Of a stretch of DNA of 64,000 bases, positions 916 through 3,900 are shown piece after piece. The stretch lies in NCBI RefSeq assembly GCF_058153355.1, contig NZ_CM177019.1; one strand, written 5' to 3'. How positions within the stretch are numbered: position 1 is the first letter of the stretch; every line of letters begins with the position of its first letter. The position numbers were made by a program.

Positions 916-3900
916 TGATGAGGGACACGGTGCCTGTTTCATAAAGATCATTTATACCCGTCATACTTCAAGTTGCATATGCGTTGGCAAGTTATTCAGG
1001 GATAGCCGGATGAGTGACATCACCATCCGGCTTAAGATTCCATACTCTAAATAATTCGAGTTGCAGGACAAAACGCCAGTGGCGTTTTGAACAACTCTTG
1101 CGTTGACCCTGAAAGGGTGAGGCCTAAGGCCGAGTAACGCGACAGGCGAGTGACAAATTCGTCGGGAACGAATTTGACCAGCCTCTGGCTGGCCTTCGGT
1201 GAAAGGCATCCTGCCTTTCAGTCATCCCCAGTCACTTACTGGGGTGAGCGACAAATCCGCATGGAGCGGATTTGAACGCTGCTTGCAGCGGTCCCGTAAG
1301 GGGTGAGGCCCATGGATGGGCCGAATAACTCGCAGACGCAGCACATGCAACTTGAAGTATGATGGGTATATACACAATGAACTTCAAGACACTTGCTTCG
1401 GTATCTGGAAATTATCATTAATTCTGGATGAGACCAGCCTTGCTATATCTGGCAACGTTTCTTCAAAAACGTCGATATTGTATCCCTGAAATCTCACGCA
1501 CTGCTGAACCGGCATGTTCATTCATTATTTATCCAGGCCATTTGCAATCAGTACCATCACTATTATATGCCTCAATATTTTCTTCAAACTCAGTTATTTT
1601 TCCACTTTTCGATTTATAGTAAGATCTATTAAATATTGCACCCTGCGTAGCAACAACATACAATCCGTTGACTTTACACCCTATAACCTCACTCCATGTA
1701 TAAGTAAACTCTGAAGGTCTATCATCGAAAGTCATTTCCAATATTTCGTAAATGCAGGAGGTATGAATTTTGAGGACATTCCATAAACCACATAACCTAA
1801 AACAACATCACCAGAAGATACTTCAACAAATTTTAAATTTATCTTCCCCAAAATAAAACAGCCAACCGTAGTTTGTTATTTAGCAAGTAAGAAAAAGGGC
1901 ATCAAACAAAACATTAAAACAAATAATTTAACTTTCATATCATTTACACCAATTCAGTTATTCGCCTCTGTACAAAAGCACACACAGATTTTGAATTAAT
2001 GGCGTCCAAAAACATAATCGGATAAAAATACCACACCGGAATATTACTGATATAGCGGGATCTTACTCATTCGCTAAACTGAAAATGCAATTGAACAGAA
2101 ATTTCTTACTAGTGTTTAGATACTCGAAAAGGAAATCAACTCACTGGCAAGTATCATAAGCTCAAATTGGCATATTGTATATTCCCATAAATAATTTTAT
2201 TTTTTTGATTAACATACTCAATACTACACATCACTAATTGAGAGAAGATTAACTTCATCATCTTTGATTAGGTACGTTTTTTAATTTTCAATGACGCATC
2301 ATAAAAAAGGGCTTCCCAAGTTTAACACTAATAACAGGATATAAAGAAAATATATTGCTATATGAATCCTTTGGCGATGTTTTGGTTATCGTAATCTTTC
2401 CTTCTTTCAAGTGCTCTGCTATTATATGAAATTGAATCGGTCTTGTTGCATCACTTACCCGCAATGGATTGCCAGCGTAAGCTTCATACCCTCCACCATT
2501 ATTCATATGTAAAATAGTGTATTCGTCATTTAAAAATGGCTGCTTACTATCGTAGACTTGGTAGTATATATTACTTATATCAAGATAAATTACTATAGAG
2601 ATATACTTAATTTTTCATTTAGCATTAACGATGTATCCATGGAATCTATACATCTTTCAATATCAGTTATTTTTTCTTCTATATACGTAGCATAACTTTG
2701 TGGCACTGGCGTGTTTAGCCCTCATATACCCTCTTTAACTAAGACACCATTTTGCTTGCTTTTTACATTGTAATAAAGACAATCAATATTGGATTTATTA
2801 TTTTTATATTTCAGTGTTGTATATACAGTAAAATCATGCAGCGAACGCCCATCTGAAACAATTGCGGGCGTGTCAGAAAAAAGTCAAATGAATAAGATGG
2901 ATTATTTTCATAATCAGTCATAAATTTCATCTTTCTTATTTCATGATCAACGATCGCATAGATCTCATGATTAGATTCATCATATCCATAAATGATTTCA
3001 CCACCAGTACTGGCAGTAGCAGTAGCAGTAGCAGTAGCAGTAGCAGTAGCAGTAGCAGTAGCAGTAGCAGTAGCAGTAGCAGTAGCAGTAGCAGTAGCAG
3101 TAGCAGTAGCAGTAGCAGTAGCAGTAGCAGTAGCAGTAGCAGTAGCAGTAGCAGTAGCAGTAGCAGTAGCACTACTACAAATCAACATAATTACAAGTAC
3201 ATATCTAGTCAAGTTGAAAACCCTTAGGGGCGGATGATGTTTTTTCCAAGATGGATTGAAATTTTTCAACATAAGAATCCATTAATTGCTTCTGATATTT
3301 TTCATTAATTATTTTTCGCGTATTATCATATTAAATTTTATCACTATTAATATATTTGGGGATTTTTACTCGTAAAAATCCCCGCCTCCATTCCCCAAAT
3401 CATAATTGATACAGGACACAACTCTAGCAATGGTATCGTGAATAGTTTTCTTTAATAAGGCACGTCTCAATTCTTGAACATAAATTCGAATTATTTAGTA
3501 AAAAAACATCATCCCTGGTAGTATTACCTATTTTTGCATAATGCTATATTTATAGTAAACAATTCACAAGAAAATATTATTACTAATATTTATATTCCTC
3601 CCACTGAGCACCATATCGATGCTTTAACAGTTCAACTTTAATTTCATCATATGTTTTAACTTTACTACCATCAATCTTAAGACGAATTTTATTCGAGGTG
3701 ATATCAACATAATTTCTATTTTCCCCACCCGCGGGGAAAAAATCAAACATAAAATTAGACATGTTTTGTTCTTTTTTCATGAGAGCTCCATATTCACACA
3801 TGTCATTTATATTTTGTATGTATGGAGCGCCCCCCTGACATGATGGATAATGAAAATCAATTATAATAAAAAGCGATTTATTGATACTCCTCTGAAAGAA

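Follow-up and report, generated by a model that had tools for sequence, protein, structure and literature searches.

The question raised by this locus is what occupies about 1.4 kb of AT-rich DNA between mnmH and a vgrG island in a 64,000-nucleotide stretch of contig NZ_CM177019.1 (RefSeq assembly GCF_058153355.1), hereafter called the window. A preliminary description had taken the tract in question, positions 1380–2810, for the probable decayed edge of a horizontally acquired locus, with the reservation that it could hide gene remnants or small RNAs. Our analysis supports the decayed edge and the gene remnants: relic sequence, all of it on the minus strand, makes up ~1335 of the 1431 bp (~93%) and comprises one end of an IS630-family insertion sequence (IS), two pseudogenes that we read as orphan immunity genes of a type VI secretion system (T6SS) and designate immA and immB, and one effector stub. 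Very probably, T6SS effector–immunity modules have been displaced and stacked up downstream of vgrG, between ybbP and mnmH, and the tract is the far end of this stack and no longer functional. It is the outermost and most decayed part of that stack and, as such, a known kind of feature.

The tract lies, as had been described, between mnmH, which ends at position 918 and is annotated as mnmH in close relatives, and the vgrG island. It is indeed AT-rich, with a GC content of 0.324, compared with 0.562 for mnmH (1–918), 0.508 for positions 919–1379 and 0.524 for the window overall. When the window is cut into 1431-bp tiles, no more than 2.6% of them reach the AT-richness of the tract. The low GC content is the native composition of horizontally exchanged cassettes. 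Low GC runs on to position ~5400 and past, so that the right edge at 2810 is arbitrary; that edge cuts a pseudogene ending at 3212. An open reading frame (ORF) scan found no ORF of at least 80 aa starting within 1380–2810. The two short ORFs named earlier are confirmed and lie on the minus strand: 1529..1741 (70 aa, TTG start) is the C-terminal half of immA, and 2288..2506 (72 aa, ATG start) is an internal fragment of immB. The term ORF-poor is apt insofar as the ORFs are short, but not insofar as stop-free runs are longer than chance would give for this composition; the longest spans 108 codons versus 75 ± 16 in 500 shuffles, of which 2.4% reach 108, consistent with relic coding sequence.

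The immA pseudogene is recovered in two frames by a tblastn search of the window with an E. coli homologue (E=1.4e-50), and it carries two lesions, a TAT>TAA change at codon 21 (1876–1878) and a 1-bp deletion at 1741/1742. At the same place, E. coli N96 has an intact 136-aa coding sequence (WP_000865233.1), while the immA of MFDS1019527 has the nonsense codon only. The lesions thus number zero in N96, one in MFDS1019527 and two here, a stepwise decay that can be followed across loci ~97% identical to one another. The N96 product begins with a hydrophobic leader, MKVKLFVLIFCLMPFFLFA, taken by eye as a signal peptide. The family comprises 22 homologues with 57–79% identity from Escherichia, Klebsiella, Citrobacter, Salmonella, Siccibacter and Cronobacter. 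Nine loci from E. coli and Klebsiella were inspected. At each of them the homologue follows a large VgrG-adjacent gene, from which it is separated by 5 nt or with which it shares 4 nt; the product of this gene is 829 aa long in E. coli and 939 aa long in Klebsiella. Such an arrangement is the signature of a T6SS effector–immunity pair.

In the window, a stub of such an effector precedes immA, its stop codon lying 8 nt ahead of the immA ATG, compared with a 5-nt spacing at intact loci. The parent protein has a WHIX region; WHIX, a secretion domain of T6SS cargo effectors, takes its name from the motif WHxxxH (Fridman et al. 2025, PMC12135965). The peptide of stub A, ..IPVWYFYPIMFLDAINSKSVCAFVQRRITELV, joins the WHIX end (..VWxFxPxxFLDAINSKSVCA) to VQRRITELV. 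Specifically, tblastn aligns stub A with residues 538–565 of the 829-aa effector (64% identity, E=1.8e-6) and, without a change of frame, with residues 811–828 (the last 18), while blastn aligns 61 nt at 90% with effector nucleotides 1636–1696 and the next 38 nt at 87% with nucleotides 2458–2495. The two blastn matches share a single meeting base at window position ~1976, indicating a clean in-frame deletion of 762 nt (254 codons). The deletion removes the lysozyme-like toxin domain.

The pseudogene immB occupies the right-hand part of the tract and extends past 2810. A query made by concatenating the minus-strand stop-free pieces between 2154 and 3272 matches one family of 289–311-aa proteins over 92–94% of its length, with a best E-value of 1.6e-103 at 61% identity. 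Conversely, tblastn of the best homologue against the window gives four collinear high-scoring segment pairs (HSPs) in three frames (Table 1). Frameshifts fall at ~2850–2880, ~2610 and ~2280–2315, with more in the last 50 codons, at least 3–4 in total. Furthermore, a TGA stands in place of the invariant Cys108 (~2725), further stops occur near the 3′ end, and the invariant residues Cys187, Trp195, Cys233 and Cys296 are replaced. The frame changes are identical in N96 and MFDS1019527, so most of the decay is older than the divergence of these two strains. At seven of seven loci, an intact homologue follows an effector-type gene: at four of them a VgrG-linked gene for 920 aa, with a 2-nt gap, and at the other three, in Cronobacter, an orphan C-terminal fragment of such a gene that encodes 293 aa.

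The partner of immB has likewise left a stub, stub B, in which tblastn of the 920-aa effector recovers residues 867–920 at 56% identity (E=4.9e-11) and, in another frame, residues 855–875; the 293-aa Cronobacter orphan fragment matches it with E=3.5e-13. Each of the two stubs sits exactly where the 3′ end of an effector is expected relative to its immunity gene. A 153-aa ORF at 2811..3272 is a chimera that starts out of frame within stub B. Inside immB there is a hexamer repeat, which encodes (Ala-Thr)n directly after the immB signal peptide and has 26.5 copies in the window, 3.5 in N96 and 2.5 in MFDS1019527, with a 144-bp indel in the alignment. A perfect hexamer tract of such length is regarded as unusual for E. 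coli; either the repeat has expanded in this lineage, within DNA that has no function, or the assembly is at fault. The repeat unit is a multiple of three, and the repeat therefore cannot switch frame. Programmed frameshifting or phase variation of immB was considered and rejected, as the frameshifts are scattered and do not coincide with homopolymer switches, and invariant residues have been lost along with them.

At its mnmH-proximal end the tract holds the IS630-family remnant. E. coli A39 has an annotated IS630-family transposase gene with a frameshift, whose 3′ end the remnant matches at 84.6% identity over 129 nt (E=1e-29), and in the alignment with A39 the homology spans ~1369 to ~1528 with one 13-bp deletion. 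The 45-aa ORF at 1384..1521 is the transposase tail. Like IS630-family elements, the remnant has ~160 bp matching their right end, including the end of the transposase gene; unlike them, it is a terminal fragment only, without the transposase and without the second end. A complete element, with transposase and two inverted-repeat ends, is not present, ~160 bp of one end being all that was found.

The tract is rare. In a comparison set of 5426 complete E. coli genomes searched with megablast and blastn, mnmH is matched in 5425 at 90–99% identity, whereas the tract is matched at ~97% in three only (N96, MFDS1019527 and MFDS1022581), together with one 129-nt piece in a fourth, indicating that it belongs to a rare accessory island. 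As the DNA search returned only the three near-identical loci and the IS630 piece, its contents could not have been identified at the DNA level alone. The tract tolerates damage: an IS2 sits inside it in MFDS1022581, and the hexamer repeat in immB, to its right, ranges from 2.5 to 26.5 copies. The plus-strand ORFs were rejected as genes, since they run opposite to the pseudogenes and nothing beyond the minus-strand pieces is needed to account for the sequence.

Table 1. Features of the tract and of the island around it (window coordinates; aa, amino acids)
Feature	Position	Strand	Remarks
ERIC-like palindromic intergenic repeat	953..1370	none	418 bp; flanks the tract, outside it
IS630-family 3′-end remnant	~1370..1530	-	last ~45 transposase codons (stop 1384–1386) and terminal sequence
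immA pseudogene	1529..1938	-	136-aa protein, signal-peptide-like N-terminus; read as orphan T6SS immunity gene
Effector stub A (immA partner)	1947..2060	-	WHIX-region end fused in frame to last ~10 codons; 38 codons
Spacer	2061..2153	none	93 bp between immB stop and effector stub A
immB pseudogene	2154..3212	-	~300–310-aa secreted protein; read as orphan T6SS immunity gene; extends past 2810
immB HSP 4	2315–2157	-	residues 245–301, 47% identity
immB HSP 3	2614–2279	-	residues 145–256, 61% identity
immB HSP 2	2880–2608	-	residues 56–146, 75% identity
immB HSP 1	3020–2847	-	residues 9–66, 64% identity
(GCAGTA)x26.5 microsatellite	3013..3171	.	TRF, 100% matches; inside immB pseudogene
Effector stub B (immB partner)	3217..3412	-	last ~66 codons, one frameshift; original stop now CAA
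323-aa partner, intact	3583–4554	-	97% identical to N96 copy
Second M35-like effector pseudogene	4499–5295	-	stop at 4810, 1-bp deletion at 4590
Orphan VgrG C-terminal fragment, 114 aa	5288–5632	-	60% identical to VgrG residues 707–804
ISAs1-type (DDE_Tnp_1) transposase fragment	5710–6063	-	in GC-rich patch
273-aa partner, intact	6219–7040	-	partner of M35-like effector
M35-like effector, intact	7064–7891	-	after vgrG
vgrG	7845–10283	-	Pfam Phage_GPD 2.9e-75
Group II intron reverse transcriptase, 580 aa	12054–13796	-	RVT_N, RVT_1, GIIM, HNH domains; between ybbP-like gene and vgrG island
ybbP-like FtsX permease	14379–16793	-	first in the minus-strand order

The intact relatives tell what kind of genes the stubs come from. 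Proteins of 829, 939, 920, 742 and 610 aa share ~550 aa of homology up to about residue 560, at ..VWHFHPVVFL.., and then diverge. The E. coli 829-aa effector has WHGGIH, a WHxxxH sequence, at residues 41–46, and the motif is present also in the Klebsiella 939-aa protein. The C-terminus of the 829-aa effector matches GH19-type endolysins and chitinases (9ms7, 1.7e-13; 4ok7, 5.6e-10), and that of the 920-aa effector matches 7r6s, also GH19-type (7.5e-7); Pfam Glyco_hydro_19 matches to the parent effectors are sub-threshold. The N-terminal domain of the 920-aa effector matches PDB 4hz9 (1.3e-23), which we take to be Tae3, and a DUF3828 (Tai3-type) gene lies upstream. From motif and architecture, the parent effectors of both stubs are judged to be WHIX-class peptidoglycan hydrolases with a GH19/endolysin-like C-terminus. 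In particular, they resemble the WHIX effectors in having WHxxxH near the start of a ~550-aa conserved region, a variable GH19/chitinase-like C-terminus, and a downstream gene whose product has a signal-peptide-like N-terminus, and the 920-aa type, with its Tae3-like N-terminus and the DUF3828/Tai3 gene upstream, matches the architecture of the 'double-blade' subclass II (PMC12135965). TseP of Aeromonas dhakensis, a characterised T6SS amidase–lysozyme effector (PMC11893102), may be set beside the parents by description only.

The window itself, in contrast, holds no WHIX effector: ~28 codons of a WHIX end and 10 terminal codons remain of one effector and 66 terminal codons of the other, and no further significant effector match was found across the 64 kb beyond these stubs of 38 and 66 codons. 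The WHxxxH region is wholly absent from both stubs. As the intact parents carry the motif and the stubs do not, the stubs are derived from WHIX-type genes and are not themselves WHIX effectors. No WHIX profile was found in Pfam or NCBIfam.

At the parent-type loci, the gene with a C-terminal peptidoglycan-targeting domain is followed by one whose product starts with a hydrophobic leader. Toxins directed at peptidoglycan work in the periplasm, a site that fits partner proteins with a signal-peptide-like leader. Unlike the products downstream of the described WHIX effectors, the 136-aa and ~305-aa downstream families match no named immunity family. Searches of Pfam and NCBIfam with the ORFs, the reconstructed peptides and both families gave no match. 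AlphaFold predicts the 136-aa family to be all-beta (pLDDT 80.5) and a 301-aa immB homologue to be mainly beta (pLDDT 84.1), both with adequate confidence. Foldseek searches of the two models against the PDB returned nothing at E<=1e-3, so that neither is assigned by structure to a known lysozyme-inhibitor fold. Literature searches, which were not aimed at family names or accessions, retrieved no paper on either family.

Arrays of orphan immunity genes downstream of hcp/vgrG/paar have been described in the T6SS1 islands of Pantoea agglomerans, where they are explained by effector displacement (PMC9796082), a model that passages of the same paper cite from Kirchberger et al. 2017 for Vibrio cholerae. 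The tract shares with these arrays immunity-type genes that have lost a working cognate effector and are stacked behind a spike gene, while their homologues elsewhere stand next to an effector gene, on its downstream side; both also contain scattered pseudogenes and IS fragments, and the signal-peptide-like N-termini fit peptidoglycan-targeting effectors. It differs in that both orphan immunity genes are dead, making it an end state and not a working array, in that short 3′-end stubs of the effectors are still attached, and in that it belongs to an auxiliary vgrG island and not to a main T6SS cluster. Consistent with an end state, neither immA nor immB retains the intact reading frame of a working orphan immunity gene.

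By this model, each incoming effector–immunity cassette beside vgrG would have pushed the previous one outward. The displaced toxin genes would then have been deleted, one of them by the clean in-frame loss of 762 nt that takes away exactly the lysozyme-like domain, while the periplasmic immunity genes would have been retained for a while against kin still armed with those toxins. After selection lapsed, frameshifts and nonsense mutations may have broken the immunity genes, together with the insertion of IS elements and the expansion of a microsatellite. At present the tract most likely has no function. What the remnants are, which lesions they carry and that their intact homologues follow effectors is shown by the alignments and gene orders, whereas the immunity function, this course of events and the present inactivity are inferred.

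Several points weigh against reading the tract as displaced, dead modules. The immunity function of the 136-aa and ~305-aa families is suggested by gene neighbourhood only, their signal peptides were judged by eye and from the N-terminal helix of the AlphaFold models and not with a dedicated predictor, and the WHIX membership of the parent effectors follows from motif and architecture and not from the authors' profile. Absence of function cannot follow from sequence. Finally, 93 bp (2061–2153) hold no identified relic. This spacer, which differs from N96 by a 5-bp indel at 2117, gave no match in the protein and DNA searches of the tract, none of which was aimed at these 93 bp. A further 170 bp (3413–3582), beyond stub B, likewise have no assignment.

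Of the alternatives, a featureless AT-rich spacer with short ORFs arising by chance is refuted. It could appeal to the lack of a Pfam match for any ORF and to the near absence of E. coli DNA matches beyond the three near-identical loci, but a spacer would not give protein matches of 1.4e-50 for immA and 1.6e-103 for the immB pieces, effector stubs at 1.8e-6 and 4.9e-11, and an IS630 DNA match of 1e-29. Alternatively, some relic could still be expressed, be it the 70-aa immA fragment (1529–1741), an 87-aa form starting from the first ATG past the nonsense codon, or the 153-aa (Ala-Thr)n ORF (2811–3272), and provide partial immunity or a new role. Gene callers do give the 87-aa product, 99% identical, on four contigs, the ORFs 1529..1741 and 2811..3272 are open, and the longest stop-free run exceeds the shuffle mean. 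However, the immA fragments lack the signal peptide required of a periplasmic immunity protein, the 153-aa ORF is out of frame both at its start, in the effector stub, and at its end, ~45 residues into the mature domain, and Cys and Trp residues invariant in the family are lost. The NCBI annotation pipeline PGAP, moreover, calls nothing at the tract in MFDS1019527 and only the intact immA in N96. We therefore consider a working relic very unlikely.

Horizontally acquired AT-rich DNA in E. coli is typically bound by H-NS, and on this general ground the tract could instead hide a small RNA or a cis-regulatory region, such as an H-NS-bound silencer or a promoter for the island genes. Its 14 sigma-70-like sites might seem to favour such a role, but shuffles of the tract give 12.7 ± 4.0 promoter-like sites, and the single terminator-like site compares with 1.4. 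A search of 1380–2810 against Rfam 15 yielded no match at E<=1, three weak sub-threshold matches all falling in the flanking ERIC-like element (957–1336), and no structured RNA was found within the tract in 120-nt windows on both strands, whose folding z-scores are ordinary (mean +0.3, minimum −1.9). Relatives carry a 5-bp indel, 1-bp indels and an IS2 within the tract, which also lies downstream, and not upstream, of the minus-strand island genes. The hidden small RNA suggested in the preliminary description thus finds no support, and a regulatory role of any of these kinds is, in our judgement, highly improbable.

A hint of the way in which cassettes are exchanged comes from a Cronobacter locus (L017, GCA_002977295.1), where the 293-aa orphan toxin fragment (5535–6416) lies upstream of the immB homologue. 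A full-length effector (2689–4521) is situated ~1.2 kb further upstream, and between its WHIX 3′ end and the orphan fragment 188 nt are 96.3% identical. The shared 188 nt looks like a homology arm for WHIX cassette switching, by analogy with the arms of Rhs and CdiA loci, and stub A of the window retains the same junction region. Orphan toxin–immunity modules of Rhs and CdiA loci were reportedly described by Poole and colleagues in 2011 and by Koskiniemi and colleagues in 2013/2014. Passages of PMC9796082 cite Koskiniemi et al. 2013 for orphan-module arrays. As in those modules, displaced C-terminal toxin/immunity cassettes are AT-rich compared with a conserved core, and a short conserved piece is kept upstream of the variable domain, here at 1977–2060 and more clearly in the Cronobacter locus. 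In contrast to them, the carrier is a WHIX cargo effector and not an Rhs or CdiA protein, and the junction is ..VWHFHPVVFL.. and not PxxxxDPxGL or VENN.

We tentatively propose, as a possibility that falls somewhat short of an even chance, that WHIX effectors diversify by Rhs/CdiA-like cassette displacement, recombining at ..VWHFHPVVFL.. and leaving behind orphans with a WHIX 3′ arm. The stub at 1977–2060 would then be a decayed example and the Cronobacter locus a live one, and the 136-aa and ~305-aa proteins would represent two new families that confer immunity to GH19-like T6SS lysozymes and whose folds resemble no solved structure. We know of no demonstration of recombination-based switching for WHIX effectors. 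The word 'recombination' is absent from the text of PMC12135965, so WHIX cassette displacement may be undescribed. In practical terms, an annotation of this stretch should replace intergenic DNA by two immunity pseudogenes, effector stubs and an IS630 fragment, and should not list the short ORFs as genes. The locus offers a snapshot of T6SS effector–immunity cassettes displaced, disarmed and then lost. Two uncharacterised families also emerge from it, which probably confer immunity to WHIX-class lysozyme-like effectors, and the end of the WHIX domain may be a junction for recombination.

The remainder of the island fits into the same minus-strand order. Away from vgrG, its distal part runs stub B–immB, stub A–immA, IS630 end, ERIC-like repeat and mnmH, and the annotation of the near-identical loci includes tssI and M35-family genes. 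The second M35-like gene is intact in N96, where it encodes 266 aa, and is split into two ORFs in MFDS1019527. In the window it is broken and its 323-aa partner is intact, so that here the effector appears to die ahead of the presumed immunity gene. With 24% identity (E=8.5e-18), the 323-aa partner is distantly homologous to the 273-aa one. In the gene order of K-12, the site between ybbP and mnmH is that of rhsD. Genes with the GIIM group II intron maturase domain also occur beside immA-bearing vgrG islands at another E. coli locus (L004, L008).

On the mnmH side, the tract is bordered by the ERIC-like element, whose ends are 30-nt inverted repeats (953–982 and 1341–1370) that are 93% complementary. 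Parts of it occur in 5425 of the 5426 E. coli genomes, at a median of three places per genome, and the strongest folding z-score, −4.5 at 1300–1419, falls in it. ERIC, or IRU, elements are imperfect palindromic intergenic repeats of ~127 bp. The element contains ACTGGGGTGAGCG, which we take to be the 3′ half of the ERIC2 primer, and the full primer pattern, in the sequence used here, has no match in it within three mismatches. The element is palindromic and multi-copy but 418 bp long; it is called ERIC-like, a name given by resemblance and not confirmed against a curated model. Two direct-repeat segments in it, 1061–1143 and 1243–1336 on the plus strand, weakly match the Rfam family AaHKsRNA22, with 31.4 and 25.5 bits, below the gathering score of 39.8; these matches probably reflect the hairpins of the repeat rather than a small RNA gene. 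Elsewhere in the window, a 6224-aa ORF at 29140–47814 on the minus strand is followed by same-strand ORFs of 308, 430 and 391 aa.

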